64,000 nt of DNA from Acidobacteriota bacterium (GTDB taxonomy: Bacteria > Acidobacteriota > Terriglobia > Acidiferrales > UBA7541), in assembly GCA_003224055.1 (NCBI GenBank), contig QHYE01000060.1, forward strand, positions 739 through 64,738, in the 5' to 3' direction. The notes beneath the pieces are model-generated. The model worked only from the letters and a program-made list of their open reading frames with translations, was not told where the DNA came from and made no database searches. This document shows, in pieces, positions 7,457 to 28,970 of this stretch (the first letter of the stretch is position 1; every line of letters begins with the position of its first letter). A program made the position numbers and the translations under genes.

Positions 7457-8058
7457 CGCTTCATGTTCCTCGCGTGCCGTTCCAGGTGCGGTCATTGTGA
7501 CTTTGTCCTCAGTCAGGGCGGGGGCGCGCCCTATCTTGCTTGAAATCTACCGCTGCCGTACTGTACTCGCTTTTTGCCAAAGTATAAAGTCCGCTTATTG
7601 ACTATCCATTGTGGAAATCAGTGGGAAACACACTTTCACCCCCTTTCGAATTGATATGAAATTCTCTCACCCCCAAAAACCATAACTACAATCACAACAA
7701 AGAGAGTGTTTCAATTTATAAATCTATAAGGCTTGTTGTTGTGATGAGCGCTGTGAATCTGTGGAAAGCCCACTAACTTCCATCACCTCCATTCTTTCGC
7801 GCACTCCTATTCCCGCGCACGCTTTGTGGAAACCCCGGAAATCTTCGCTCTTTTACTTAGTTTTACACCAAGGCGTCTCGATCCATACACGCCCATCCAC
7901 AAAAATTCCACAACTTCCGCAGAGCTTCTCCATAAGGCAAAAACTCCGGGATTCGCTAATGAGGTGGAAGTGCACATCGAGCGGCAAGAGAAAATATTTC
8001 ATATCGTGCGATAGGCCAGTAGGGATGCAGAAGAAGGAGAGAGGGAAAAGCAGGTGAA
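7457..8058. other. candidate oriC in the dnaA-dnaN spacer
   Basis: 602-bp non-coding spacer. DnaA-box-like 9-mers (7 of 9 to TTATCCACA or its complement) are TGTGGAAAT 7610-7618, TGTGGAAAG 7760-7768 and TGTGGAAAC 7825-7833. In the opposite orientation are CCATCCACA 7893-7901 (7/9) and the weaker AATTCCACA 7904-7912 (6/9). An A/T-rich stretch lies between them. Confidence 0.7.
7645..7735. other. A/T-rich stretch, candidate DNA-unwinding element
   Basis: cgaattgatatgaaattctc ... gtgtttcaatttataaatctataag (core 7706-7730) is visibly the most A/T-rich segment of the spacer. It sits between DnaA-box copies. Confidence 0.45.
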
Positions 8059-13790: not shown

Positions 13791-15350
13791 CTACTGGACT
13801 TTGTTGTGCTGCACGTTGCCGCCCCAGGCATACCATCCGTCGGCGTCCTTGTTCCCCGTCTTCAGACAGATGAGCCGCCCGTCGGAAGTTCCGACGTAGA
13901 GATTGCCCTTCGCCAGCGCCGGTTGAAACGCGATCGGGGCCTTCATCGCGTAGGAAAAACCAACGCCACCATCGCTTTGGTTCACGGAAAGGAGATGACC
14001 ATCCGCTCCAGCGAGATACAAATAGTCACGGCCCACCGCCGGCGGCGAGAAAATCTGCCCGCCCGGCGCGGCATGCGACCCGACAACTTCCGCCTGCCAC
14101 GACTGACCCCCATCCGAGGCACGTACGGAGTTGATGTAGTTTCCCTGCGCATTCAGAATCTGTCCCTTGCTCACAGCTGCTCGCGAACCCTGATAGGCCC
14201 ACGCGCCAACCACAGTGCTTACTCCTAAATTGTCGTTGGCTTGCGCAAGCTTCGCGGCGGGCGGAGCCGCGCTAAAGCCCACCGAAGAATCTAAGCTCGC
14301 TGTGGCTTGAGCCGAAAGAGCAACGCCTCCTCCGTTTCCCTTCTGTAGGTACTCGGCTTTGCTCTTGGCAATCAGCTCCTTGTCTTGCGCTTCGCCCTTC
14401 TTTGCGTCCACTCGCGCAAGGCCCTCGAACATTTCCTTCCCTCTTCCGCCCTTGCGTGTTTCGTAGAGCTGGCCACTGGAGATCACCGGAGCGCTCGTTG
14501 CCGCATTCGCCTTCACCCAAACCACGGAACCGTCCGTCGCATTCAGCGCATAGGAATTGCCGTCGAACGTCGTGAAGTACACTGTTCCATCGGAAATGAC
14601 TGGTGCGGTTATCACATCCCCGGAGATTTCCTGTTCCCAGATGTGCCGGCCTGTTTTCAAGTCCGCTGCCAAAAGGCGGTGACTTCCGCCCGGCCACGCT
14701 GCTTGAGGATGAAACTCCGCGCGCTTCGCGGGCCTGCCTGTTGCCGCCGGATGCGCCGTGTACAGCACGCCCTTATCGATCGCCGGCTGGCTCATCAGCG
14801 GGTCTCCCAGCCACTCCTGCCAGACCAAGCGTCCCCTCCGTTCATCCACCACAATCAGCGTGCAGCTCTCCGTGTTAAACGCCACCAATCCGTCCGCTAC
14901 CACCGCAGCCGTCGGTCCGTCCTCGCCCGTCTGGATCTGCCAAATGATTTTTCCGGTTTCCGCATCGACCGCATAAAAATCGTGCGAGCCATAGCCACCG
15001 CCCACAAAAAGCATCCCGTCCGCATAAGCAGGGGTGGCGATCGGCCGTCCGCCCGGGAGCCGCAGCACCCACCCGCTCCTTCCGTCGGACGTGCCAAACG
15101 AGGCAGCTTCCAGGTCGCGCTTCGGCCTCGGAAGATTCACGTTCACTCCGGTGCTCAAATCAATCCGCTTCACGGCCTGCTTGGCCGGACCTTCGGCAGC
15201 CTTGCTCGCAGCTGCCGTTATGGTCTTGACCTCTTGACGGGAGTCCGGCGGGAACAGGGCTGTGACACCCAGGAGCAAGCTCAAACTTGCCCCGAGAGAT
15301 AGCGCCCAACTGGACTGGGAAGACATAGAACCTCCATGGCGCAACGCCAT
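13791..15350 (-). CDS. PQQ-like (BamB-type) beta-propeller repeat protein, secreted
   Basis: Repeats such as GMLFVGGGYGSHDFYAVDAETGKIIWQ, LVAFNTESCTLIVVDERRGRLVWQ, TVYFTTFDGNSYALNATDGSVVW and NLYVGTSDGRLICL. An alternative start is at 15326. Confidence 0.85.
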   Translation of the reverse strand: MALRHGGSMSSQSSWALSLGASLSLLLGVTALFPPDSRQEVKTITAAASKAAEGPAKQAVKRIDLSTGVNVNLPRPKRDLEAASFGTSDGRSGWVLRLPGGRPIATPAYADGMLFVGGGYGSHDFYAVDAETGKIIWQIQTGEDGPTAAVVADGLVAFNTESCTLIVVDERRGRLVWQEWLGDPLMSQPAIDKGVLYTAHPAATGRPAKRAEFHPQAAWPGGSHRLLAADLKTGRHIWEQEISGDVITAPVISDGTVYFTTFDGNSYALNATDGSVVWVKANAATSAPVISSGQLYETRKGGRGKEMFEGLARVDAKKGEAQDKELIAKSKAEYLQKGNGGGVALSAQATASLDSSVGFSAAPPAAKLAQANDNLGVSTVVGAWAYQGSRAAVSKGQILNAQGNYINSVRASDGGQSWQAEVVGSHAAPGGQIFSPPAVGRDYLYLAGADGHLLSVNQSDGGVGFSYAMKAPIAFQPALAKGNLYVGTSDGRLICLKTGNKDADGWYAWGGNVQHNKVQ

Positions 15351-15427: not shown

Positions 15428-18055
15428 TCAGTCTATAAAATCGATAACCGCCCCTTCGCGCCGGTCTTGGAATCCGGCGAACTGGCCGAAGTTTGGCGCG
15501 GTCACGTTGTTGTACACGGCGTTGAAATTGCCGTGATTTGTGACGTTCAGCGAGTACACACCCAGCCTGACGTGATGCGCCTTTCCTTTGCCGTGTTCTG
15601 AGCCAAGAAATGGAATGCGGAATTCGCGATAGAGTTTCACGTCCAGCGTGAAAAACGAATTGAAGCGCTGCCCGTTCGGCGTCCCCACATAGTTTTGCAG
15701 CGTATCGATGTTGGAATAGGGATAGCCAGTGTGTATATCCGCGATTGGGCTGAACTTGAAGCCGCGCGGCAAGGAAACAATTCCCCAGGTCACAACGCGG
15801 TTGGGCACGTCATACGGCAGAATGCCGTATACATTCGGGCGAATCACCGGCTGCGCGAAAGGAATGAGCACGGCAGAAAGATTGTTCAAATCCCCGCGCG
15901 TACGGCTCCAGATGTAGGAGACATTTACCTCATCGTTGCGATGAAAGGTGAAATGTACGGTGCTTTCCAGCTCGCGATAATGCGATGAGCCCGTGTCCGT
16001 GAGAGCCAAATAGGATTGCGCACCCGGCGCAGCCGTGAAAGGATTCACCGTAAACAGATGCGTTGTGTGGCTATCGGTATAACCGACGCGCAAAGACACA
16101 TTTCTCCGCAACTGGCGTTCGACTTCGATGTTCCATGTCAGGTTGCGTGGCGTCGTGCCCGGCTGGCTCGGCAATGCGCTCGCAGTCAGTGGGTTCATCC
16201 TGCCGGCGTAGGCGTTCGTGTAGGTAACCGGGGGCCCGCTCGGCAGGCCCGCCGTATCAAATGGCGTGATCACGCGAATTGGGTTCGCTGCGAAGTCTCC
16301 CGCCAGAAGCGGCAGCAAGCTATAGAACAAGCCCACGCCCGTTCGAATGACGGTCTTGCCGTCTTTGCCGGGAGAGTAGGCCACCCCGGCGCGCGGAGCC
16401 ACCGCGCCGGACCAACCCTTGGTCTCGCTCGACAATCGTGCTCCCAGATCAACGGCCCAATTGGAATTCAGTACCCAGTGATCCTGGAGGAATTCCGCCA
16501 CGGCCGTGTCCGATGCGTTCTGCGCTGTCCCAGGCAGAAAAGTTGTCTCTTGCGCCAGCGTCCCATCCTGACGAAGGACTTGCACCGGATTCGAGCTGCT
16601 GATTCCTGCGTACGACCGATGATCGAAATCTACGCCCACGTGGACTTCGTGGCGGCCGTGCCAGTGTTTCTCGGCGAATTGGTACGCGGAGACCAGTTGA
16701 AATTCCTTGCCCTTGCGCGACCATTGATTGAAGAAATTCCCGCCCCAGCCTTCCGGCGTAACCAGCATGTCCGCCGGGCCTTGGCCATGCGCATTGCTGT
16801 CAAACCGCGTGTACTGCGCAATCGTGCTGAAGATGGCACCCGAGCCAAACTGATACCGATCCGTCAGCCCAACCGCTATGCCTTTTTGGTTCAGGTCGTT
16901 CGAGGCCGGCTGGGGAACGAGAGCATTGATATCCGCGTGCTGTTGCCGCAGCGGGAACGCATTCACCGTGAGCATCAGGATGTGTGTATTGGAGAGGATC
17001 GCCTCGACGGTCGAAAACGAGCTGAACCCTTGCTTCTTGCTGATGTCATTGGGCCAGGGCAAGCCGCGCACCGTGCGCTTTTTCATGTCGTACTGGAAAA
17101 TTTCCGAAAATAGCAGTTTGTGGGCAAGCAACGGTACGCCAAAGTCCAGCCCCGGGGTCGCCTCCTGCAGTCCGATCATGCTCCCGTTCTTGCCGAGTAC
17201 GGACGGAATGAAACTTTTCAATCGGTAGTTCCACCGGTCGTCGGGAGGTTTGGTTTCTACCACCGTCAATCCACCGGAAAAACTTCCCAGGCCCGCGTTA
17301 TACGGCGTCTTGTACACCGCGAAGGACTGCACGGCGTCAGTCGGCACCGGCACGGAGAAACTTCCCGTCACCGGATCAGTGGTCCGCGCCGAATTCACGA
17401 GCAACAAGCTCTGATTCTCGTCCGCGCCTTTGAAGTTCAGTTTTCCATCCTGTGTTTTCACTACCCCGGGAGTAACCGGCAGAACTTCACGGATCCTTTC
17501 TTGCGCCGTCGGAAGTGAAATCAGTTGGCGCTGGGTAAGGGTCACGCTCGGCGTCGACACGCTCTCGGTCGCGATGGCTTGCGTATCTTCGCTGACTTCC
17601 ACTTTTTCCGTGACGGTCTCCAGCTCCGCGCGAATATCCAGAGCAGTAGCCTGTCCCGCATTCACTGTGACCGTCTTTGTATAGGGTTTAAATCCCGGCT
17701 GGTTGATAGAAATCGTGTACGTCCCCGGCTTGAGGCCCTTGAATTCGTAGCTCCCCGCCTCGTCCGTACCCGCTGTAAGCGGGCTGCCGTCGGGCCCCGG
17801 TGTCAGCTTCAAAATAACGCCTGCCAGGCCACTCGAAGTGTTCTCCTGCAGCGTGGTCACCGTCCCGTGAATGGACCCTGAACGTGGATTCTCTCCGCGA
17901 GAGTGGGTTTCTTGCGCAAACACCGGACCAGCCGCGAGCAGCAATATAAAAACAGCCACCGCCTCCAGAAACCAACCGCAGGCGAGGCGCCATGCCCGCG
18001 CAGTCGTGGGAGGTGAAGGCACGGTTCTGCCACTGTCAGGTCGAGGGAAGCTCAT
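15428..18055 (-). CDS. TonB-dependent receptor with carboxypeptidase-regulatory-like N-terminal domain
   Basis: GSIHGTVTT...GVILKLTPG...TDEAGSYEFKGLKPGTYTISINQPGFKPYTKTVTV is CarboxypepD_reg-like. It is followed by a plug and a long beta-barrel. Confidence 0.88.
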   Translation of the reverse strand: MSFPRPDSGRTVPSPPTTARAWRLACGWFLEAVAVFILLLAAGPVFAQETHSRGENPRSGSIHGTVTTLQENTSSGLAGVILKLTPGPDGSPLTAGTDEAGSYEFKGLKPGTYTISINQPGFKPYTKTVTVNAGQATALDIRAELETVTEKVEVSEDTQAIATESVSTPSVTLTQRQLISLPTAQERIREVLPVTPGVVKTQDGKLNFKGADENQSLLLVNSARTTDPVTGSFSVPVPTDAVQSFAVYKTPYNAGLGSFSGGLTVVETKPPDDRWNYRLKSFIPSVLGKNGSMIGLQEATPGLDFGVPLLAHKLLFSEIFQYDMKKRTVRGLPWPNDISKKQGFSSFSTVEAILSNTHILMLTVNAFPLRQQHADINALVPQPASNDLNQKGIAVGLTDRYQFGSGAIFSTIAQYTRFDSNAHGQGPADMLVTPEGWGGNFFNQWSRKGKEFQLVSAYQFAEKHWHGRHEVHVGVDFDHRSYAGISSSNPVQVLRQDGTLAQETTFLPGTAQNASDTAVAEFLQDHWVLNSNWAVDLGARLSSETKGWSGAVAPRAGVAYSPGKDGKTVIRTGVGLFYSLLPLLAGDFAANPIRVITPFDTAGLPSGPPVTYTNAYAGRMNPLTASALPSQPGTTPRNLTWNIEVERQLRRNVSLRVGYTDSHTTHLFTVNPFTAAPGAQSYLALTDTGSSHYRELESTVHFTFHRNDEVNVSYIWSRTRGDLNNLSAVLIPFAQPVIRPNVYGILPYDVPNRVVTWGIVSLPRGFKFSPIADIHTGYPYSNIDTLQNYVGTPNGQRFNSFFTLDVKLYREFRIPFLGSEHGKGKAHHVRLGVYSLNVTNHGNFNAVYNNVTAPNFGQFAGFQDRREGAVIDFID

Positions 18056-18304: not shown

Positions 18305-20944
18305 TTAGAAGTGAAAGCCCAGTTCGGCCGTGTACGTCCGCGGCGTCACAAAATGCGTTCCGCTGAACGTGGAGAGAAAATTGTAGAGCGCCACCTTGTT
18401 GGTTACGTTGATGGCCGTGAGGCGCAAGCTCCACTTGTAGCGATCGCCGCGGAGCAGGTTGTCGTCGCCGACGCTTAGATCAAACAGGTGCCTCGGCGCG
18501 ACGCGGGGCGGGTTGTGATCGTCGTTTGCCGTTCCCGGAGCCGGAAGGCTGATGCGCGTCGAACCATATAGTGTGGGATCGCAGGTGGTGAGCGGTGCCG
18601 TCAAAGTCGGAACCTGACTTCCGCAGAATAAGCCTGCCTGGATTTGCTGGTCCGCGGTGATGCCGGTCAAGTCCACGGGAGTCCCTGCGTCCGCCACCGG
18701 CACTGCCCCCGCAACCAGCCCGTTGTCATATCGCCAATTGAAGGCAATCCACGGCCACTCCTTCTTAGGCTGGTATTGCAGGTGCGTGGTTTGTTGGAAC
18801 TTCTGGTCGTGATCGATGCGGAACGCGCCGGCGGTCGTGAAATCCGTGCCCAACCCTCCCACTTGCGGATTGAAGAACCGCGAATTCACGCCGCTCATCA
18901 CCACGAACGCTGTCAACCCATGAAAATTCGGCACGCTTGTGCGCACCGAAAACCCGCTGATCTTCGAATTGTGCCAGGAGATAGGGAACGTAATAGGCGT
19001 GCCGAAGATGACGCCAAAGTCAAAAGCATTGTGGGTGTACTTCCACAAGTAGTCTGCGTCGACTACCACGTGTCGCCCGAAAGCCTGCTGGAACCCGCCG
19101 TGAAACTCGTTTCGCTGTCCGCCGCGAATCGATCCTGGGGCTCCCAGTACGCTGGAGAAGACACCTGCCGCATCCCCGAGACTTCCGACGATCAGGTTTT
19201 CGTTGAAGGGAGTTTCCAGAATCCGGGCGTAGGAAATCCTCAGCACGGTATTCGAAGGCTTGATGTTATAGGCGACGCCCAATCGAGGCTCTGCTTGCCA
19301 GTCGCGGCTGAGGCCGCGATAGATATCCCCGCGCACGCCCAGGTTGAACGACCAGTTTCCTGCCGTGATCGTGTCCTGAATATACAGCGCCACCTCCTTG
19401 ATGTCTGTATGCCCATGAAAGCGGAATAGGCCGCCTCCCTGCGTCAGGTCGAACGGCAGCAGAACCGCGCACGGATCGGGTGCCGGATTGCCGTTCGGGC
19501 ATCCGAGCGAGGGCAGAAAAGTCGGATCAACGATCCCAAGCCTTTCGTCCTCGGTCAGGAACGTATGCTGCAACGTCACCCCCGCCTTGATGTTGTGTCT
19601 CCCTTTCACGTACGAAACATCGGAACGAACGCCCAGGTTGCCTAGCGTACGATCTTGCGCGATGGTCGCGTTCTGCAGGAACGGGGTGAAATCGTCAAAT
19701 GGATTGCCGCTCGGGTAATAGTTGTAGTGATCTCGCCGCCCGAAGACTCCAAACGTAAAGAGAGTGGTGGAGCCAAACAGGTGCGTCCAAGTGGGGGCCA
19801 AGTTAAAAGTCTTGATCTGCGATCGCTGATCGCTGGGACCCAGGGGAGCGCCGGTCAGGGGATTCACCAGGAACGTGTCCGTGGCATCGCAATCAAACCC
19901 AAGCCCGGCAGGGCAAAGATGAAGTTGCGCGTCAAACGAATTGGGACTTTGAAACCAGGAACGCGTGTAGCCCGCGTTGAAATGGATGCTGTCCGCTTGG
20001 CTCAACTGAAAATCCACACGGTCAAACAGATTTTGCTGGTTCCCCTTGGAGTGCATCACCTGAAACTCCGGCGGATCGAGAAATCGGCTTGTTTCCAGAC
20101 CGTTTGCAGCGATGAAATTGCCCCACTTCTGTCCGCCGAAGGCCATGTCGAAGCTCGCTGTCGTGGTGCCAAAAGATCCGTACGACGCCCGCACGCTGCC
20201 AACCGGTTTCGTCTGGCCCATGCCCGAGCGCGTCGTGACTTTGATCACCAGGCTGGTCTTGTCGCCGAATTCCGCCGGCGGCGCGCCCGAAATCACTTCC
20301 AGCGATTGAATGGAATCCACGGGAATCTGGTTCGAGAAAACCTTGCTTTGCTGATCCGTGATCGGTTGTCCATCGACGGAAAACGAATTCTCCGCGTGAT
20401 CGCCCAGGCCGTGAAAGAGACCATTCGAATCGGCCACAACGCCCGGTGATGCCAGCGTCACCAGTGAACTGACCGAGGAGGATGGACTCTCGAGCGGCAG
20501 CTTTTCAAAAAGCCCGCGATCCACGTCCGTGTGAAAGGTAGAATCGTTTTCAAGGAGATCCGAACCCGTGGCCTCCACCGTGATACTCGTCGCGGCGGTT
20601 CCAATTTTCAAAATGATCGGCACCGTCGTCGGAACAGTTGAGCGCACATCCACGTCCTGCGTAAACGAGGCGAACCCGGGCGCCGTCACTACCAGGTGAT
20701 AAGGATTGAATGGCACGTTTGCGAAACGATAGCCACCATCGCTTCCCGTGGTGGTTTCCCGGTGATATCCGCTCACGGGATAGGAAATTTCCACCGTCGC
20801 ACCGGCGACCACTCCGCCGGATGCATCTTTCACTACGCCTTCTATCGAGCCGGAATTCCCTACTTGCGCCTTTGTTGGCCCAGCCGCCAAGCACAGAAAA
20901 AAGCCCAAAACCAAAATCACGTAAGTACTCAATCGCTTCAACAT
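18305..20944 (-). CDS. TonB-dependent receptor with carboxypeptidase-regulatory-like N-terminal domain
   Basis: Signal peptide, then GSIEGVVKDASGGVVAGATVEISYPVSGYHRETTTGSDGGYRFANVPFNPYHLVVTAPGF. C-terminus ...TYTAELGFHF ends in the terminal aromatic residue typical of outer-membrane barrels. Confidence 0.9.
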   Translation of the reverse strand: MLKRLSTYVILVLGFFLCLAAGPTKAQVGNSGSIEGVVKDASGGVVAGATVEISYPVSGYHRETTTGSDGGYRFANVPFNPYHLVVTAPGFASFTQDVDVRSTVPTTVPIILKIGTAATSITVEATGSDLLENDSTFHTDVDRGLFEKLPLESPSSSVSSLVTLASPGVVADSNGLFHGLGDHAENSFSVDGQPITDQQSKVFSNQIPVDSIQSLEVISGAPPAEFGDKTSLVIKVTTRSGMGQTKPVGSVRASYGSFGTTTASFDMAFGGQKWGNFIAANGLETSRFLDPPEFQVMHSKGNQQNLFDRVDFQLSQADSIHFNAGYTRSWFQSPNSFDAQLHLCPAGLGFDCDATDTFLVNPLTGAPLGPSDQRSQIKTFNLAPTWTHLFGSTTLFTFGVFGRRDHYNYYPSGNPFDDFTPFLQNATIAQDRTLGNLGVRSDVSYVKGRHNIKAGVTLQHTFLTEDERLGIVDPTFLPSLGCPNGNPAPDPCAVLLPFDLTQGGGLFRFHGHTDIKEVALYIQDTITAGNWSFNLGVRGDIYRGLSRDWQAEPRLGVAYNIKPSNTVLRISYARILETPFNENLIVGSLGDAAGVFSSVLGAPGSIRGGQRNEFHGGFQQAFGRHVVVDADYLWKYTHNAFDFGVIFGTPITFPISWHNSKISGFSVRTSVPNFHGLTAFVVMSGVNSRFFNPQVGGLGTDFTTAGAFRIDHDQKFQQTTHLQYQPKKEWPWIAFNWRYDNGLVAGAVPVADAGTPVDLTGITADQQIQAGLFCGSQVPTLTAPLTTCDPTLYGSTRISLPAPGTANDDHNPPRVAPRHLFDLSVGDDNLLRGDRYKWSLRLTAINVTNKVALYNFLSTFSGTHFVTPRTYTAELGFHF

Positions 20945-20990
20945 TTTTTCTCCATCCCCCCAAGGGTTATCGATAATGAGCGTGGATAGA

Positions 20991-21013
20991 AACCGCCTGG
21001 AACTGTGGCGGTT
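20991..21013 (-). promoter_or_regulatory. hairpin between mini-protein P1 and the TonB-dependent receptor (attenuator or terminator-like)
   Basis: Minus strand reads AACCGCC-ACAGTTCCA-GGCGGTT followed by TCTATCC. It lies 62 nt after the P1 stop and 47 nt before the receptor ATG. Confidence 0.35.
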
Positions 21014-21074
21014 GCGCGACAGCCTGGATAGGCGTCATCGCACAGGGATTGAAACTATCGAATTGGAGATTGCG

Positions 21075-21383
21075 TTACGCGGAGGGAGGGGCGCGCCCGG
21101 CGCGATGCAGGGCAAACGAATCGCTGGGGGCCGCGTGCAGCGGGAGCGAGGAATACCAGGTAACAAACTCAGGTGTGCTGACGAGATCCAGCGGTGCCGC
21201 TGCCAGAGTCGGCATGTGCAACGCCTGGCAAATATGACACGCTGGGTCCGGACCCTTCGTGTGCTGGTGAAGGAAGCTGCCGCCTGCCGCGAAATACAGC
21301 AGCGCGGCGCAAGCCAGTATCGCCAGCGCGCGCTGTGCCGTCGATCGTCTGAAAATCGTATTCTCCCAGTGCATAAGCGACAC
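21075..21383 (-). CDS. small membrane-anchored Cys/His protein ending in RAPPSA (P1)
   Basis: 102 aa. One TM helix (ALAILACAALLYFAAGGSFL), then HQH...DPACHICQALH, and the tail ALHRAGRAPPSA-stop. Paralogous to 21504..21779. Start is GTG 21383 or ATG 21374. Confidence 0.65.
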   Translation of the reverse strand: MSLMHWENTIFRRSTAQRALAILACAALLYFAAGGSFLHQHTKGPDPACHICQALHMPTLAAAPLDLVSTPEFVTWYSSLPLHAAPSDSFALHRAGRAPPSA

Positions 21384-21458
21384 TTTAGCTTAGCACCTTA
21401 GACGGGCTGCCAGGCAAGTTGGTTGCTATTGAGGTACCTGGGGGGAAGGGCGGGTAGC

Positions 21459-21487
21459 TTGACCTCGCAACCATTCTTCCCTAAGCT
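21459..21487 (+). promoter_or_regulatory. candidate promoter for P2 and the porin operon
   Basis: TTGACC (21459-21464), a 17-nt spacer, then TAAGCT (21482-21487). This would leave a very short leader before the ATG at 21504. Confidence 0.3.
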
Positions 21488-21503
21488 CCGTCTTACTAAC
21501 CAG

Positions 21504-21779
21504 ATGCGAGTCAACGCCCGGGGAACGTGCTTTCTCATTTTTCTTGTCGGCGCCTTCTTCCTGGCGACGCAGTTTCACTATTGCACTGACCTCATGGTTG
21601 ACCCGTCCGCTTCTCACATTTGTTCAGCATGTTCCACCATGGATTCCTTGGTAGCCGCGCCGGTGCCGCAGCTTGCCATCGCGCACGTCAACCACCGCTT
21701 GGAGATTGTGCCTTCGGTCCGCACAATCTTTCTGGCGGCTCCGCGCACTGCCTCTCTGCGCGCGCCTCCCTCCCTCTAG
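21504..21779 (+). CDS. small membrane-anchored Cys/His protein ending in RAPPSL (P2)
   Basis: 91 aa from the ATG at 21504 (the track ORF starts at TTG 21423). TM helix CFLIFLVGAFFLATQF, then HYC...DPSASHICSAC, and the tail ASLRAPPSL-stop. Same architecture as P1. Confidence 0.65.
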   Translation: MRVNARGTCFLIFLVGAFFLATQFHYCTDLMVDPSASHICSACSTMDSLVAAPVPQLAIAHVNHRLEIVPSVRTIFLAAPRTASLRAPPSL

Positions 21780-21849
21780 TTACTCGCGGTGCCCCGGTAA
21801 CAATCCCTAGGTGTCCAGACTATCGGTTGTATGAGTGAGGAGTAATGCC

Positions 21850-23250
21850 ATGAAGAGAATCGCAGTCCTGTCCGCCGTTATTTTCTTTTCTGCTGCTGCC
21901 TCGGCACAGCAAGCTCCCCCGGCCGAGCCGAAGAAAGACGTGCCCGCCACCCAATCTTCAGTCGCAGCGTCGGAAGAAACGCGCATGAAGACTCTCGAGG
22001 ATCAGGTGCGCACGCTGGCCGAGCAAGTAACCTTGCTCCGAGGCGAGCTGAAAGCGATGCGCGACGCGAGATCCGTTGAACCGCGCTCCGAAGAACCCAT
22101 TCTGCTTACGGCTGCACACGTCGCACCGGGCATTTTGGCTCCCTCCGCGCCCGCCGCCGTCCCAGCTTCGCCTGAGCCTGCCCTACCGCAGGCCACTCAG
22201 ACTCAGATTTTTGGAGGCGCCTCGTCCAACGCCAAACTCCTCAACCCGGACATCAGCCTGATTGGTGACTTCATCGGCGCCGCGGGACGCAACAACGTTT
22301 CTCCCTCGCCCTCGCTCGAATTGCACGAATCCGAAGTCGGCCTGCAAGCCATCATCGATCCCTACGCGCGCGCCGACGCTTTCATTTCCTTTGGCGAAAC
22401 CGGCGTAAACGTCGAAGAAGCCTATGTGACCTTCACCTCTCTTCCCGCCGGGCTTCTTCTGAAAGTCGGCAAAATGCGCGCGGAGTTTGGCAAGGTCAAC
22501 ACCATTCACAACCACGCCCTGTCATTTATCGATCGGCCGCTCGTGACCAACAATCTTGTCGGCGGCGAAGACGGTATCGATGACGCCGGCTTCTCCCTGT
22601 CGCGTTTCTTGCCCGCGCCGAAAGACTGGTTTTTCCAAGGGACGGCCCAGGTTTTCCGCGGCGATTCCGACGATCTGTTCCAGGCTAGGCGCCGCCAGGA
22701 CCTCAGCGTTGTTGGCCACCTCCGCGCTTACCGCGATCTCAGCGAATCCACCAATCTCGATCTCGGCGTTTCCTACGCTCGCGGCCACAACAATGCCGGT
22801 GTCGGCACCACTTTCGATCCTTCTAGATTTCTCACCAATCTCTACAGCGTCGACGCCACACTCCGTTGGAAACCCCTGCGTCGCGCCATTTATCACTCCT
22901 TCTTATTCCGCAATGAATTTTTCTGGAGCGCGCGCGACCAGGTTTCTCCCGCCACTGTTTTCCAGACCGAGCATGCCTTCGGCCTCTATTCCGACGCCGA
23001 ATACCGCGCCAACCGCCGCTGGACCATCGGCGGCCGCTTTGACCGCAGCGGTCACGCCGCCAACGCAAATCTGACGGATACCGGCTTTTCCGCTATCCTC
23101 ACCTACTGGCCCAGCGAGTTCAGCCAGATCCGCGGCCAGTACCGCTTCGGGCATCTCGCCGATCCGGTCACAACCAATTATTCGAACGCCAACGAATTCT
23201 TGTTTCAATTTCTCTTTGTGATGGGTGCGCATGGCGCGCATCCGTTCTAA
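21850..23250 (+). CDS. outer-membrane beta-barrel (porin-like) protein with N-terminal coiled coil
   Basis: Signal peptide MKRIAVLSAVIFFSAAASAQ and a heptad-like segment MKTLEDQVRTLAEQVTLLRGELKAMRD. Alternating beta-strand pattern, ending ...GAHGAHPF with a terminal Phe. A GAGGAG SD lies 7 nt upstream. Confidence 0.7.
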   Translation: MKRIAVLSAVIFFSAAASAQQAPPAEPKKDVPATQSSVAASEETRMKTLEDQVRTLAEQVTLLRGELKAMRDARSVEPRSEEPILLTAAHVAPGILAPSAPAAVPASPEPALPQATQTQIFGGASSNAKLLNPDISLIGDFIGAAGRNNVSPSPSLELHESEVGLQAIIDPYARADAFISFGETGVNVEEAYVTFTSLPAGLLLKVGKMRAEFGKVNTIHNHALSFIDRPLVTNNLVGGEDGIDDAGFSLSRFLPAPKDWFFQGTAQVFRGDSDDLFQARRRQDLSVVGHLRAYRDLSESTNLDLGVSYARGHNNAGVGTTFDPSRFLTNLYSVDATLRWKPLRRAIYHSFLFRNEFFWSARDQVSPATVFQTEHAFGLYSDAEYRANRRWTIGGRFDRSGHAANANLTDTGFSAILTYWPSEFSQIRGQYRFGHLADPVTTNYSNANEFLFQFLFVMGAHGAHPF

Positions 23251-23272
23251 AAGATTTTTCTGGAGACCCTCT

Positions 23273-24232
23273 ATGCAACGCACAACAACTCACACTCGTA
23301 TCAACCGTGTCAGCGCGCTTGCGGCCGCCTTCCTGCTCGTCCTCGCACTCGCCGTTCCGTCTGCGGGCCGCGCCGAAAGCAAACTGCAAATTATGACCGC
23401 CACTACGGACCTCGCCTCCCTGGCCCAAGAAGTCGGCGGCGACAAAGTGGATGTCGAATCCATCGCCCGCGGCTATCAGGACCCGCATTTCGTGGAAGCC
23501 AAGCCTAGTTTTCTGCTCAAGCTGCGCAGAGCCGATCTGCTCATCGTCGTCGGCCTCGAACTCGAGATCGGCTGGCTCCCGCCGCTCATCACGCAATCCA
23601 CTAATCCGAAAATCCAAGTCGGCGCACCCGGCTATCTTGACGCCTCGCGCTTCGCCAAGATCCTCGAAATCCCCACCGGCCAGGTGACTCGCGCCGAAGG
23701 CGACGTCCACCCCCTTGGGAATCCGCATTACTGGCTCGATCCGGAAAACGGTTTGCGCATCGCCAAGGGCATTCAGAACAAGCTCAGCGAGATGCGTCCC
23801 ATTGACTCTGCCTATTTCGCGCAGCGCTACGATTCGTTCGAACAGCGCCTGAAGCAGGCCGACCAACGGTGGCTGGCCGACATGAAGCCCTACGCCGGCC
23901 GCAAGATCGTCACCTATCACCGCTCCTGGCCGAACTTTGCGGAACACTTCGGCTTGAATGTCATTGGATACGTTGAGCCGCGGCCCGGCATTCCTCCCAG
24001 CCCCCAGCACACTGTGGAATTGATCGCGCAGATGAAGCGCGATGGCGTCAAACTCATCATCGTTGAGCCCTACTTCGATCTCAAGACGCCCAACAGTGTC
24101 GCGCGGCAAACCGGCGGTCAGGTCGTCGTTCTCACGCCCTCGGTAGGCGGCGAAAAAGAGATCACCGACTATTTCAAGCTGTTTGATTACGACATTGCTA
24201 AGCTCAAGCAAGCCTTTGATACCGTTCACTGA
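23273..24232 (+). CDS. metal (Zn/Mn-type) ABC transporter substrate-binding protein, ZnuA/TroA family
   Basis: ATTDLASLAQEVGGDKVDVESIARGYQDPHFVEAKPS...EGDVHPLGNPHYWLDPENG...VTYHRSWPNFAEHFGL...IIVEPYFD. Confidence 0.88.
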   Translation: MQRTTTHTRINRVSALAAAFLLVLALAVPSAGRAESKLQIMTATTDLASLAQEVGGDKVDVESIARGYQDPHFVEAKPSFLLKLRRADLLIVVGLELEIGWLPPLITQSTNPKIQVGAPGYLDASRFAKILEIPTGQVTRAEGDVHPLGNPHYWLDPENGLRIAKGIQNKLSEMRPIDSAYFAQRYDSFEQRLKQADQRWLADMKPYAGRKIVTYHRSWPNFAEHFGLNVIGYVEPRPGIPPSPQHTVELIAQMKRDGVKLIIVEPYFDLKTPNSVARQTGGQVVVLTPSVGGEKEITDYFKLFDYDIAKLKQAFDTVH

Positions 24233-24296: not shown

Positions 24297-25157
24297 ATGC
24301 TGGAATTCTTGCTGCCCGCTTTTGTAGCGAGCCTTATTCTTACAGGGATTCATGCCTATCTCGGCGTTCACGTGGTCGAACGGGGCGTCATCTTCGTGGA
24401 CCTAGCGCTCGCGCAGATCGCCGCGCTCGGCGCCACCGTCGCCATCGTTGCCGGCATGGACCCCCACGGCCGAGGCGCCTACTGGATCAGCCTGGGGTTT
24501 ACGTTCCTCGGGGCCGCGATCTTCGCGCTCGCGCGCAGCCGCCGCGGCCACATTCCCCAGGAAGCCTTTATCGGCATCGCTTACGCTGTTGCTTCCGCCG
24601 GCGCAATTCTTCTGATGAGCAAGGCGACCGGCGAAACCGAGCACCTGAAAGACATGCTCGTCGGCAATATCCTCGCCGTCTCCTGGGCCGAAGTGAAAAA
24701 AACCGCCATTCTCTATGGTGCCGTCGGCATCTTCCACTATATCTTCCGCAAAAAATTCCTGGCCATCTCCATGAATCACGCAAAAGCTGAGCAAGCGGGC
24801 CTCAACGTGCGCTTCTGGGATTTTCTCTTTTACGCTTCGTTTGGTTTTGTCGTGACGTCTTCCGTCGCCATCGCCGGCGTCTTGCTGGTTTTCTGCTATC
24901 TTATCGTCCCCAGCGTCGGCGCTATGCTCTTTGCGGACCGCATCGGCGCGCGCCTGGCTATCGGCTGGACCATGGGCACGCTAGTTTCCGCTCTCGGCGT
25001 CTATCTCTCCGCCCAAATCGACTTGCCCACGGGCGCCACCATCGTTGTCACGTTTGGCGGCGTCCTCATCATAATGTTCCTGGTCCACCTGCTTCTGCAT
25101 CACGGCCGCGAAGCTCGCCAGCTCGAAGGCGCAGCGGCTGCCCAGCGCGAAATCTAG
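24297..25157 (+). CDS. metal ABC transporter permease (ABC-3 / ZnuB-type)
   Basis: Multi-pass membrane protein, [45 protein letters not shown]..., the typical ABC-3 permease N-terminus. Confidence 0.88.
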
Positions 25158-25200: not shown

Positions 25201-25776
25201 CTATTTCGCGGGCTGCGCCGTCGGCGGCAAAATCCCGTTCAACCGCAAATAAATCGCCTGCGTCGCATAGTGGTCGGTCCAACTGCCACCCAGCGCCACC
25301 AGCGCCCCTCCCCGCGAAATCGGCCGGTTGCCGAACAACACGAATTGCTCCCCCAGTTTCGAATCGTCCACCTTCGCCAGCGCCGCCGTGCAAAACGCAA
25401 AGGAGTCCTTCACCGCCGCCACCAGCTTGTCCTTCGCATCCGTCTCCGCAATCTTCACGTCCGGCGCCGTCTGCCCGGAAATCTTCGCACAGAACGTATT
25501 GTTCGATTGCGCGATGTGCATCACCAGGTGCCCGAACGAATTCATCTCTGGCGAAGGCTTGAAGCCATACTTCTCCGCCGGCATCGCTTCGGCTGCCGCC
25601 ACCATGTTCTTCTCATATCGCCCCACTCCCGCTTTCACAAAGCCACTCACCGGATTCGACACCGGCGACAGGTCTGGCGGCGGACTCGCCGCTGGTGCCG
25701 CCTGCTGCGCAAACGCACTGCCCGCCGCCATAAACACCGCCATCACCGCAACCAGCAAACTCACGCGTGTTGTCAT
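25201..25776 (-). CDS. DinB-family (four-helix-bundle) protein with signal peptide
   Basis: [24 protein letters not shown]...[16 protein letters not shown]...[17 protein letters not shown]. Confidence 0.7.
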
Positions 25777-25923
25777 TTTTTCCTCCCGGCAAAATCCGCT
25801 CGAAAAGCATACGCCCTCCACAACTCTCCAACAAGCGTCACCTGCGCCCAGCCATTTTTCGGTTCACGGTGCCACTCCTATTTCCATTTCTTTGGAAACA
25901 TTTTCGCTCACGCCGCGTCTCTA

Positions 25924-25941
25924 CCTATAGCTATCTATAGG
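25924..25941. promoter_or_regulatory. inverted repeat overlapping the padR SD, candidate PadR operator
   Basis: CCTATAG-CTAT-CTATAGG has perfect 7-bp arms and ends 7 nt before the padR ATG. A second inverted repeat, TTTCCA-TTTCTT-TGGAAA, lies at 25881-25898. Confidence 0.45.
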
Positions 25942-25947
25942 AGCTCT

Positions 25948-26280
25948 ATGCTCAAGCCCAAAAACGACCTTCTCCAGGGCACCCTCGCCCTCCTGGTCCT
26001 CAAGACCCTCGCTCGCGGGCCCATGCACGGCTACGGCATCACTCTTCACATCCAGCAGGTTTCCGAAGACATCCTCCGCGTCGAAGAAGGTTCCCTCTAC
26101 CCCGCCCTCCACCGCATGGAACAGGACGGCTGGGTCAGCGCCGAGTGGGGCATGTCGGAAAACAATCGCCGCGCTCGCTACTATCGCCTCACTGCCGCGG
26201 GCCGTAAGCAGCTCGCCGCGGAAGAACTCGACTGGCAACGCCTCACGCAAGCCGTCGCCCACGTTCTCAAGTTCGCTTGA
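25948..26280 (+). CDS. PadR-family transcriptional regulator
   Basis: [85 protein letters not shown]. Confidence 0.93.
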
Positions 26281-26303
26281 GCGGCACGAAAGGAAGGTGC
26301 ACC

Positions 26304-28970
26304 GTGTCCTGGATCACTCGCCTGCGAGGCATGTTACGAAGGGAACGCTTGGATCACGACCTCGACGAAGAGCTGCGTTCGCACATCGAGATGCGCGCCG
26401 CCGATAACCTCGCCGCCGGCATGTCCCCTGAAGCGGCGCGCTACGAAGCGCAAAAGCGCTTCGGCAACACCGCGCTCCTCAAGGAAGACACTCGCAACAC
26501 CGACATCGTCGGCTGGGTGGACGTGGCCGCTCGCGATTTTCGTTACGCGCTGCGCATGCTGCAGCGCAGCCCCGGCTTCACCGCCGTCGCCGTTCTCACT
26601 CTCGCCCTCGGCATCGGCGCGAACACCGCGATTTTCTCCGCCATCAACTCCGTTCTTCTTCGCCCGCTTCCGTATCACGATCCGGGCAGCCTGGTGATGG
26701 TCTGGGAAACCAATTCGCAGCACCCCAAGCCCCACAACACCGTCTCTCCGCCGAATTTCCTCGATTGGCAAACCCGCAACACAGCTTTCTCAGACATGGC
26801 TTACATCGCCGACGTGCGCAACAATCTCACCGGAAATGGCGACCCCGAGGAGGTCGTCGTCCAGGCCGTCTCCGCCAATTTCTTTTCCGTGCTCGGAGTC
26901 AATCCACTCCTCGGCACCGGGTTCACCCCGGAAAATGGCCAAGCCGGTCACGACAACGTCGTCATTCTAAGTTACGGCCTTTGGAAGGATCGCTTCGCCG
27001 GCGATTCCGCCATTGTTGGCAAATCCATTCTTCTCAATGGAAAACCCCGGGCCGTCGTCGGCGTCGCGCCCCAAAATTTCAATTGGTTCATCAAGGACGG
27101 CTCGCTCACCGGCGCAAAGCCTCGCCTGTGGTCGCCCTTCGTGTTTAAGCAGTCGTTTCACGATCACAAACAAATCGGCCGCTTCCTGACCGTGGCTGCG
27201 CGCTTAAAGCCCGGCGTCACCCATGCGCAGGCGCAGGCCGAAATGACCGCCATCGCCGCCCAGCTCGAACACGAGTATCCCGATTTTGACGGGCATTGGG
27301 GAGTCAACGTCGTGCCGCTGCGCCAGCAGATTTCCGGCGAACTCCGTCCTGTTCTGCTGATCTTGTTCGGCGCCGTAGCTTTCGTCCTCCTGATCGCCTG
27401 CGCGAATGTTTCCAGCCTGCTTCTCGCCCGCGCGGCCAGCCGCGAACGTGAGATGGCCATTCGAACGGCCATCGGCGCAAGCCGCTGGCGCATCGCGCGT
27501 CAACTCCTAATGGAAAGTTTACTGCTCGCCGTGATCGGCGGAGGAATCGGCGTCGCGCTCACCGTGCTTGGCACGAATGCACTCCTCGCCGCGAGCCCGC
27601 ATAATCTTCTCGACCTCCCGTCCGTCTCGATCGATCTGCGACTCTTGACGTTTGCCGCTGCCGCCACCTTGTTGGCGGGCTTGCTCTTCGGCTTTCTTCC
27701 CTCCTATGTATCCGCGCATTCGCAGATCTCCCAAACGCTAAGAGAAGGTGGCCGCGGTTCGTCCACCGGCGAACGCCGCCGCTTCGCAAGGAGCGCCTTC
27801 GTCGTCGCGCAATTGAGCCTCGCGCTCGTCCTTCTCGCCGGCTCCGGTTTGCTGATTCGCAGCTTTGTGCGCCTCGTCGGCGTCCATCCGGGCTTTGATA
27901 CCGCTCACCTCTTGACCTTCAAGGTCTCCCTTCCGCAGTCCAAGTACGCCACGGACAAATTGTGCATGGCATTTTTCCAGCAGTTGCTTGCACGCATCGG
28001 CGCCGTTCCCGGAGTCCGCTCCGTCACCATGGAAAACTATCCGCCACTGACCGGTTTGGGTGCCGCCACCGGCGTCCACCTTCTCAACCAGCCGCAGGTA
28101 GCGCTGATGGATCTTCCCGTGGCGAACGTCCGCGTCGTCGGCCCTGAATATTTCTCCACGATGAGCATCCCTTTGCGTGTCGGCCGTCTTTTCAGTGAAC
28201 AGGAAATGGCGGAGGAAAAGCATGTCGCCCTCATCAACCAGGCTTTCGCGGACAAATATTTGAACGGCGTCAATCCCCTCGGCCAGAAAGCCGTCATCTA
28301 TATGAAGAGCCTGGCGGAGTCCGGCAATCAGCCGTCGGAAATCATCGGCGTGGTCGGCGATGTTCGCCAGATGGGGCTCGACGTCGCCGCGGAGCCCACC
28401 GTTTACTGGCCCATGCCCGAGCTCGTCTATTCGGGAATGACGATTCTGGTGCGCACTTCCAGCGATCCTTTGTCCGTGGTTTCCGCCATCCACAACGAGC
28501 TTCAGCAATTGGACCGCGAACAGCCCATGGCCTCCATCGCCACCATGGACCAGCTTCTCGCCGATTCGCTTTCCCGTGCGCGCTTTACCATGCTGCTTCT
28601 GGGAATTTTTGCCGCCGTCGCTCTGCTGCTTGCCGCCGTGGGCATCTACGGCCTGATCGCCTACAGCGTCACGCAGCGCACCCAGGAACTCGGCATCCGC
28701 ATCGCCCTCGGCGCGCAGCGCCGCGATGTCCTCCGCCTCGTCCTGCGTCACGGAACCCGTTTGACGCTGCTCGGCCTCGCACTGGGAATTGCCGCCGCCC
28801 TGGCGATCACGCGCCTCTTGGCCAGCCTGCTTTTCGGCATCAGCGCCACGGACCCGCTCACTTTCGCCGGTGTCGCCGCCTTGCTCGCGTTCGTCGCCCT
28901 GCTGGCCTGCTTCATCCCCGCCCGCCGCGCCACCCGCGTCGACCCCATCGTAGCCCTCCGCTACGAATAG
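26304..28970 (+). CDS. ADOP-type duplicated FtsX/MacB-like permease
   Basis: VSWITRLRGMLRRERLDHDLDEELRSHIEM...RSPGFTAVAVLTLALGIGANTAIFS, with two MacB_PCD/FtsX halves. I chose the GTG at 26304, preceded by a GGAAGG SD. The track ORF begins at TTG 26277, overlapping the padR stop. Confidence 0.9.
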   Translation: MSWITRLRGMLRRERLDHDLDEELRSHIEMRAADNLAAGMSPEAARYEAQKRFGNTALLKEDTRNTDIVGWVDVAARDFRYALRMLQRSPGFTAVAVLTLALGIGANTAIFSAINSVLLRPLPYHDPGSLVMVWETNSQHPKPHNTVSPPNFLDWQTRNTAFSDMAYIADVRNNLTGNGDPEEVVVQAVSANFFSVLGVNPLLGTGFTPENGQAGHDNVVILSYGLWKDRFAGDSAIVGKSILLNGKPRAVVGVAPQNFNWFIKDGSLTGAKPRLWSPFVFKQSFHDHKQIGRFLTVAARLKPGVTHAQAQAEMTAIAAQLEHEYPDFDGHWGVNVVPLRQQISGELRPVLLILFGAVAFVLLIACANVSSLLLARAASREREMAIRTAIGASRWRIARQLLMESLLLAVIGGGIGVALTVLGTNALLAASPHNLLDLPSVSIDLRLLTFAAAATLLAGLLFGFLPSYVSAHSQISQTLREGGRGSSTGERRRFARSAFVVAQLSLALVLLAGSGLLIRSFVRLVGVHPGFDTAHLLTFKVSLPQSKYATDKLCMAFFQQLLARIGAVPGVRSVTMENYPPLTGLGAATGVHLLNQPQVALMDLPVANVRVVGPEYFSTMSIPLRVGRLFSEQEMAEEKHVALINQAFADKYLNGVNPLGQKAVIYMKSLAESGNQPSEIIGVVGDVRQMGLDVAAEPTVYWPMPELVYSGMTILVRTSSDPLSVVSAIHNELQQLDREQPMASIATMDQLLADSLSRARFTMLLLGIFAAVALLLAAVGIYGLIAYSVTQRTQELGIRIALGAQRRDVLRLVLRHGTRLTLLGLALGIAAALAITRLLASLLFGISATDPLTFAGVAALLAFVALLACFIPARRATRVDPIVALRYE

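Follow-up and report, generated by a model that had tools for sequence, protein, structure and literature searches.

Two divergent small ORFs of an Acidobacteriota genome as probable DUF2946-class metal-sensing ribosome-arrest leader peptides

Introduction

What is the function of two very short Cys- and His-containing genes that stand back to back between a TonB-type receptor gene and an operon for a ZnuA-type ABC importer? The question is raised by P1 and P2, a divergent pair of open reading frames (ORFs) in a 64,000-nucleotide stretch of an Acidobacteriota contig (the whole stretch is called the window below). A preliminary description, made from the DNA letters, took them for paralogous membrane-anchored mini-proteins. 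We propose that P1 and P2 are probably metal-sensing ribosome-arrest leader peptides of the CruR/CutF class (DUF2946), each heading a metal-transport operon.

Results and Discussion

P1 and P2 are conserved genes

The two ORFs lie where they had been described and are supported by the ORF list, by homologues and by the ratio of nonsynonymous to synonymous substitution rates (dN/dS):

21075-21374, minus strand: P1, putative leader ORF, 99 aa from the ATG at 21374
21504-21779, plus strand: P2, putative leader ORF, 91 aa

An alternative GTG start at 21383 extends P1 to 102 aa (21075-21383, minus strand), and the length of 102 aa and the spacer of 120 bp first reported both hold when counted from this codon. 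The ATG at 21374 is the likely start because homologues are almost all 99 aa long, and the gap from ATG to ATG is 129 bp.

Homologues of P1 make up at least 528 clusters, mostly of 99-aa proteins, and the P1 profile matches 85 representatives at 50% identity among 1.84 billion proteins; the P2 profile matches at least 778 clusters. No name and no Pfam domain is attached to any of these homologue clusters. Species-representative genomes supplied 49 P1 and 37 P2 coding sequences, which give a dN/dS of 0.23 and 0.28, respectively, at a dS of about 1.4. Several synonymous codons occur at each invariant His, Cys, Arg and Pro; in the RAPP motif of P1 the relatives use CGC, CGA, CGG and CGT for Arg, GCN for Ala and CCN for Pro. 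Selection acts on the peptide and not on the DNA, because synonymous codons vary at invariant residues. P1 and P2 are real conserved genes under purifying selection, and the conservation in relatives on which the preliminary description depended is found in both families. A reading of the two as spurious ORFs was rejected on the dN/dS values. An intact P2 homologue at 7596-7871 (minus strand) of DATEHF010000032.1 (locus L001) is uncalled in the deposited assembly, an instance of the under-annotation of the small ORFs of this family.

Anatomy of the P1 and P2 proteins

Both proteins end in RAPP, an established ribosome-arrest motif (PMC10951233, PMC7897499), two residues short of the stop codon, and both carry a His/Cys cluster behind an N-terminal hydrophobic segment:

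21270-21326, minus strand: P1 hydrophobic signal-anchor, residues 17-35 (Kyte-Doolittle maximum 2.08, net charge of the N-flank +2)
21216-21269, minus strand: P1 His/Cys cluster H36-x-H38...C46-H-x-C49...H53, with CxxC at 21228-21239
21084-21095, minus strand: P1 RAPP motif R94-A95-P96-P97, two codons before the stop
21576-21584, plus strand: P2 motif H25-Y-C27
21621-21632, plus strand: CxxC of the P2 motif H38-I-C40-S-A-C43
21759-21770, plus strand: P2 RAPP motif, including R86, P88 and P89

The His/Cys motifs quoted earlier are present in both proteins, that of P1 reading H36-Q-H38...C46-H-I-C49-Q-A-L-H53 in full. The tail, first called identical, is common to both as far as RAPPS and is nearly, not fully, identical beyond it (RAPPSA in P1, RAPPSL in P2, each followed by the stop). 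Among ORFs of at least 40 aa in the six frames of the window, only P1 and P2 end in R[AG]PP within their last 14 residues.

In an alignment of 47 P1 relatives, with identities down to about 25%, only C46, C49, R94, P96 and P97 are invariant, and H36, H53 and A95 are conserved in at least 90%. H25, C27, H38, C40, C43, R86, P88 and P89 are invariant in P2 (27 relatives). A95 of P1 is replaced by Gly only, the motif being RAPP in 43 of the 47 relatives and RGPP in the other four; in genomic loci L019, L028, L034 and L037, too, the motif is one of these two. One or two residues trail the motif in 36 of the 47.

The distance between the cluster and the motif is as constant as the motif itself. From CxxC to R[AG]PP it is 44 aa in 43 of the 47 divergent P1 relatives and in all 49 genomic copies, and from CxxC to RAPP in P2 it is 42 aa in 37 of 37 genomic copies, while in P1 (n=47) the intervening sequence has almost no majority residues despite its constant length. 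AlphaFold2, run on the 47-sequence P1 alignment, predicts a helix at residues 7-31 (pLDDT about 90), a short helix at the CxxC and coil at residues 54-99 (pLDDT 63-73), with a pTM of 0.34. A segment of constant length, free sequence and no predicted structure reads as a ruler, and the spacer of P1 and P2 fits such a role rather than that of a folded domain. At the N-terminus, the export signal was judged by hydropathy, with the AlphaFold2 helix in addition for P1; the hydrophobic segment of P2 covers approximately residues 3-21 behind a positively charged N-flank, and the single transmembrane helix first ascribed to each protein agrees with these data.

Comparison with known arrest leaders

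The closest known counterpart is CruR (Bp2923) of Bordetella pertussis, a 145-aa DUF2946 protein encoded by a leader ORF that heads a TonB-transporter operon (Roy et al. 2022, PMC9426467). CruR has a CXXC motif, then 45 residues, then RAPP three residues from its end, and is followed by a 162-nt intergenic region; an export signal is present in more than 95% of DUF2946 members (PMC9426467). Mutation of RAPP abolishes downstream expression and mutation of CXXC abolishes copper control, the signal being relayed by Rho-dependent termination in the intergenic region (PMC9426467). Arrest of CruR has been shown in the PURE system, where the P site holds the third RAPP codon and the A site the fourth (Fujiwara et al. 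2025, PMC12992588). The same study finds RAPP and RGPP to be the strongest arrest motifs, RAPP to be otherwise avoided in proteomes, and small secretory RAPP leader ORFs upstream of TonB receptors to be general in Gram-negative bacteria (PMC12992588).

P1 repeats this anatomy almost exactly, with an export signal, a CxxC, about 45 residues, RAPP two to three residues from the C-terminus, the first position in a TonB-transporter operon and a long intergenic region, and P2 is a shorter variant; the family hallmarks listed for DUF2946 (PMC9426467), namely export signal, CxxC, C-terminal RAPP, fixed spacing of about 45 aa, operon-first position and long intergenic region, are all seen in P1, and in P2 with the fixed spacing at 42 aa. 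The 44 aa of P1 lie inside the published spacing of 45 ± 1-2 (PMC9426467). Unlike CruR, P1 and P2 fall below the Pfam threshold, are 91-99 aa rather than 145 aa long, and belong to the Acidobacteriota, a phylum from which the DUF2946 family had not been reported. They also differ from it in having extra invariant His ligands (HxH...CxxC...H in P1, HxC...HxCxxC in P2), in lacking a PepSY_TM partner gene at their loci and in the CarboxypepD_reg type of their receptor.

A second characterized member of this class is CutF of Rhodobacter capsulatus, in which copper induces the arrest, melting a stem-loop over the ribosome-binding site, so that the sign is opposite to that of CruR (PMC9973294; bioRxiv 10.1101/2025.02.05.636593). 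Like CutF, P1 and P2 combine a signal peptide, a Cys motif and a proline arrest motif at the C-terminus in a leader ORF of the DUF2946 class, behind which an intergenic RNA precedes a metal-homeostasis gene. The commonest neighbours of CutF-like proteins are TonB-like and outer-membrane efflux protein (OEP)/resistance-nodulation-division (RND) genes (PMC9973294), and P2 likewise precedes an RND/OEP operon in 21 loci. The motifs themselves are different, CutF having CxxxC and PPP where P1 and P2 have CxxC and RAPP, and the modelling here shows no opening of the ribosome-binding site on arrest. These family hallmarks, the CxxC/His cluster and the metal-transport neighbours support the metal binding or sensing first suggested for the pair, as far as sequence can.

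Relatedness of P1 and P2 and the link to DUF2946

Compared pairwise, P1 and P2 are only weakly similar (BLASTP E 0.011), and narrow profiles give an insignificant E of 0.086. Broad profiles align them over 84 columns with a probability of 91.5% and an E of 8.5e-7 (hhalign). The paralogy claimed in the preliminary description is supported by the broad-profile match.

Weak matches to the DUF2946 profile PF11162 (E<=10) were obtained for 27 of the 47 P1 relatives and 13 of the 27 P2 relatives. The sampled relatives score 9.6-19.5 bits, below the gathering score of 23.7, and their alignments run from profile positions 49-60 to 117 of 117, which is the part from CxxC to RAPP. One relative, P0201, bridges the gap: the P1 profile finds it at E 3.9e-4, and its PF11162 score of 31.0 bits exceeds the gathering score. 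Genomic context among the distant relatives was read for P0201, the other contigs being too short, and its gene sits 124 nt upstream of a CarboxypepD_reg receptor gene. By this profile evidence P1 and P2 are linked to DUF2946 through intermediates while remaining below the Pfam threshold. The resemblance to DUF2946 noted earlier was right in substance, by way of these intermediates; direct membership in the Pfam profile fails.

P1 and P2 head metal-transport operons

The genes downstream of the two ORFs are as follows:

18305-20944, minus strand: TonB-type outer-membrane receptor with CarboxypepD_reg and Plug domains (Pfam), downstream of P1
21850-25157, plus strand: operon after P2 (Pfam, NCBIfam), with a 466-aa outer-membrane protein (21850-23250), a ZnuA-type binding protein (23225-24232) and an ABC-3 permease (24297-25157)

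P1 points into the receptor gene, as had been said, and the receptor gave no match in a PDB sequence search. For P2 the gene order and the ZnuA and permease assignments of the first description hold; its label "porin" for the 466-aa protein is plausible only. This protein has a signal peptide and the C-terminus ...GAHGAHPF, and its gene overlaps the start of the ZnuA gene by 26 nt. It has no significant match among Pfam, NCBIfam or PDB sequences, the best being Porin_O_P at 14.2 bits, below threshold. The operon is without a ZnuC ATPase gene. The ZnuA-type protein is equally close to Zn- and Mn-binding proteins of the PDB, so the metal cannot be assigned from it.

A survey of 50 related loci, with a P2 ORF in 37 distinct loci, bears on the co-occurrence with receptor and ZnuA genes. 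The receptor gene follows P1 in approximately 46 of the 50 after an intergenic region of 125-140 nt, and P2 is divergent from P1 in 24 of its 37 loci across a spacer of 126-178 bp. In 16 loci, including the window, P2 heads, across an intergenic region of 63-83 nt, an operon whose first structural gene encodes the outer-membrane protein, followed by ZnuA and ZnuB; in 21 loci it heads an OEP-CzcB-RND operon, whose pump scores 870 bits on TIGR00914, above the cut-off, as a heavy-metal exporter of the CusA/CzcA type. In the papers cited here on neighbours of CutF-like and DUF2946 genes (PMC9973294, PMC4176598), no ZnuA-type ABC importer was found among the partners. Operon type does not divide the P2 sequences: those that share a type have a mean identity of 0.53, those of different types one of 0.50, and the nearest neighbour belongs to the other type in 8 of 37.

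Several individual loci deserve mention. Much the same P2 stands before an importer-type or a CusA/CzcA exporter operon, as comparison of L002, L005, L007 and others with the window and L001 shows, and in L029 and L023 parts of both P2 operon types are joined on one strand. In six loci (L033, L034, L036, L039, L043 and L049) no ORF ending in RAPP or PP was found in the gap of 660-1140 nt upstream of P1; in this subclade, whose P1 carries HEHKDGRGDTPCHVC, an RND operon lies divergent to P1 without a P2 leader.

Alternative readings

The shared tail being the RAPP arrest motif, P1 and P2 are most likely regulatory leaders and not stable anchored proteins; of the "membrane-anchored mini-proteins" first described, the N-terminal hydrophobic helix stands and the stable membrane protein most likely does not. 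The strongest competing explanation takes the opposite side and regards them as stable small periplasm-facing membrane metalloproteins (chaperones or CzcI/CopL-like regulators) that act in trans, RAPP being incidental or a docking motif. In its favour are the single hydrophobic helix, with LLYFAAGG conserved in close relatives, and the invariant His/Cys set, which could form a four- or five-ligand site. Moreover, CzcI, encoded upstream of czcCBA, is grouped with CutF-like proteins yet has no proline motif and is thought to be a regulator (PMC9973294). The Caulobacter DUF2946 gene CC2720 precedes czrCBA (PMC4176598). CzcI (Cupriavidus), CC2720 and, in 21 loci, P2 are alike in being small exported Cys/His proteins encoded first in a heavy-metal RND operon; P2 differs from CzcI in its C-terminal proline motif, and the P2 of the window heads an importer-type operon. 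We nevertheless consider this explanation unlikely. A stable metalloprotein would hardly keep a region between cluster and RAPP that is fixed in length, free in sequence and predicted to be coil, nor a RAPP that is replaced solely by the other strong arrest motif and that proteomes elsewhere avoid (PMC12992588). In addition, the ORF always lies directly 5' of a transporter operon and is followed by a long conserved intergenic region, and CruR and CutF are undetectable as proteins in vivo (PMC9426467, PMC9973294).

The same four-residue arrest motif stands close to the C-terminus of ApdA, ApdP, the Streptomyces set and SecM, in the last of which it reads RAGP; all are small secretory or membrane proteins whose genes precede a regulated one (PMC10951233, PMC7897499, PMC12992588), and the interchange of RAPP and RGPP in the P1 and P2 families is that of the RAPP/RGPP arrest peptides. 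P1 and P2 might accordingly be monitoring substrates of the Sec/YidC type, like SecM, MifM and ApdA/P, whose arrest is released by the force of membrane insertion and reports secretion capacity; an N-terminal signal-anchor with a C-terminal RAPP is the very layout of known substrates of this kind (PMC7897499, PMC10987492). This is very unlikely, since ApdA, ApdP and SecM monitor the protein-localisation machinery, whereas a metal-ligand cluster and a place at the head of metal-transport operons mark P1 and P2. No sec or yidC gene lies directly downstream of them, but a receptor gene, an outer-membrane protein-ZnuA-ZnuB operon or an RND pump. Apart from RAPP, what is invariant in them is a set of His and Cys whose distance from the arrest site is fixed, and from the end of the hydrophobic segment to the arrest point there are 61-67 residues, more than the distance over which helix insertion usually pulls in force-profile studies.

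On a further reading, P1 and P2 would give rise to ribosomally synthesised peptides that chelate metal, leave the cell and come back through the receptor. This draws on the finding of small Cys/His-rich ORFs beside a TonB-type receptor gene and in some loci beside an efflux pump, but is rejected as most improbable on genomic context, there being no MbnB/C-like, radical SAM or cyclodehydratase maturation enzymes in the conserved neighbourhood, and the conserved parts being a transmembrane helix and a C-terminal RAPP instead of a leader and a core.

Intergenic RNA and divergent spacer

A CruR/CutF-class leader would act through the RNA behind it, and the regions that follow P1 and P2, together with the spacer between them, contain these elements:

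20945-21074, minus strand: intergenic leader from P1 to the receptor gene, 130 nt (alignment of 45 loci and per-sequence folds)
21013-21044, minus strand: hairpin A
20992-21012, minus strand: hairpin B
20956-20966, minus strand: hairpin C
20950-20953, minus strand: Shine-Dalgarno sequence GGAG
21780-21849, plus strand: intergenic leader from P2 to its operon, 70 nt, C/U-rich after the stop, with GAGGAG before the ATG at 21850
21375-21503: spacer between the divergent ORFs, in which promoter-like blocks are conserved (23 distinct spacers aligned)

The P1 leader is made up, in order, of a C/U-rich, G-poor tract after the stop, hairpin A, hairpin B, a conserved CUCUAUCCAC element and hairpin C, which abuts the ribosome-binding site. 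In hairpin B (CCGCC/GGCGG) pairing reaches 96% and there are 9 compensatory cells, which 0 of 500 shuffles attained. The stems of hairpin A vary between clades yet stay paired in per-sequence folds, with a mean z of only -1.2; RNAalifold on the MAFFT alignment recovers hairpins B and C only. In the first 40 nt after the stop the C/G ratio is 1.63 for P1 and 1.99 for P2, and such C-rich unstructured tracts would suit Rho loading, by analogy with CruR. No intrinsic terminator was found in the intergenic region of P1 or P2, the U-run of hairpin B sitting in the loop and not behind the stem.

In the modelled free RNA the ribosome-binding site is mostly paired (probability of being unpaired 0.21-0.26). 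Imposing the footprint of a ribosome stalled at RAPP gives 0.23-0.34, a small change, and a terminating ribosome changes the value somewhat more. The duplex energy of the post-stop tract with the ribosome-binding site is -12.7 kcal/mol for the native pairs, -10.4 ± 3.0 for shuffles and -12.2 for partner swaps.

On the P2 side of the divergent spacer, a strongly conserved block TTGACC-N17-TAAGCT is followed by about 14 nt, devoid of a ribosome-binding site, up to the ATG, and an inverted repeat CTAAG-N6-CTTAG overlaps the -10-like hexamer. Repeated CTAAGGT elements occupy the P1 side. A strict sigma-70 scan of the spacer gave no match. A transcription factor that adds a layer of control to the leader peptides could have its operator in these elements.

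Proposed mechanism

In the model that we favour, each ORF would be translated from a short leader, and the N-terminal signal-anchor would bring the nascent chain to the membrane. The ribosome would then arrest on R-A-P-P, its P site occupied by Pro96 (P1) or Pro88 (P2) and its A site by the codon of the last Pro, at which point the His/Cys cluster should lie 45-47 residues behind the peptidyl-transferase centre, just outside the exit tunnel. Metal occupancy of the cluster would alter the duration of the arrest, and this duration would set downstream expression by way of the intergenic RNA, which is conserved, structured and C-rich. The logic of CruR is favoured for P1 and its receptor: arrest would keep the operon on and metal would relieve the arrest and turn it off. 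For P1 and P2 we infer the arrest, its metal dependence, its sign and its relay by Rho or by masking of the ribosome-binding site. The extra invariant His, taken with ZnuA and CzcA as neighbours, may point away from copper and towards zinc or another divalent metal. Since both signs exist within DUF2946, in CruR and in CutF, the intergenic region may decide the sign of P2 regulation.

Several observations weigh against assigning P1 and P2 to this class. Neither protein has any Pfam match, PF11162 included, or NCBIfam match, even at E<=10, and the fixed 42-aa spacing of P2 is one residue outside the published 45 ± 1-2. The conserved hydrophobic N-terminus equally fits a stable membrane protein, and the acidobacterial members are known from sequence alone. 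The same P2 sequence type heads importer and exporter operons, which a single fixed regulatory sign fails to explain. At the RNA level, the modelled RAPP stall does not open the ribosome-binding site (probability unpaired for P1 0.21 to 0.23), and the post-stop tract is no more complementary to the ribosome-binding site than in controls with swapped partners.

A more specific version of the model, which we regard as possible but doubtful, has the two nascent chains act as separate channels that sense zinc or some other divalent metal, not copper, with a Cys2His2 site in P1 and a Cys3His2 site in P2, and has the same P2 give opposite outputs, through the ZnuA-type importer in some genomes and the CzcA-type exporter in others, the sign coming from an exchangeable intergenic RNA. 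If true, it would be a peptide analogue of a riboswitch aptamer with swappable expression platforms.

P1 and P2 would form a new acidobacterial branch, invisible to the profiles, of a kind of regulator that was itself characterised recently; the kind is not new. Two large acidobacterial families (the at least 528 and 778 clusters counted above), carried as "hypothetical" and sometimes uncalled, can now be read as CruR/CutF-class leader ORFs, which would bring this class to a major soil phylum and add ZnuA-type ABC importers to the operon types that it heads. One leader before either an importer or an exporter is a natural experiment on how the sign of arrest-based regulation is set, and the two families could show whether nascent chains sense metals other than copper.

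Neighbouring genes

Beyond the receptor of P1, a second CarboxypepD_reg outer-membrane barrel (15428-18055, minus strand) and a PQQ-like beta-propeller protein (13791-15350, minus strand) are encoded; both genes follow that of the receptor and may share a transcription unit with it, under the proposed control of P1. Beyond the operon of P2, the 336-aa ORF at 25270-26280 (plus strand) is over-extended, only its last 110 residues or so corresponding to a PadR regulator of the acidobacterial type (TIGR03433). A MacB/FtsX permease gene (26277-28970, plus strand) comes next, and a DinB_2 gene lies at approximately 25204-25674 on the strand opposite to the PadR ORF. PadR/MacB pairs of this acidobacterial kind, together with best hits in Candidatus Acidiferrum/Acidoferrum, assign the window to the Acidobacteriota. 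The acidobacterial synteny of P2, P1, receptor, TPR protein, DinB and PadR recurs in L015, L016/L019, L020, L021, L030/L033/L043 and L052, on contigs labelled as metagenome-assembled genomes of Saccharimonadales, Udaeobacter, Limnocylindria, Eisenbacteria, Dormiibacterota or Betaproteobacteria, for which mis-binning is the likely cause.

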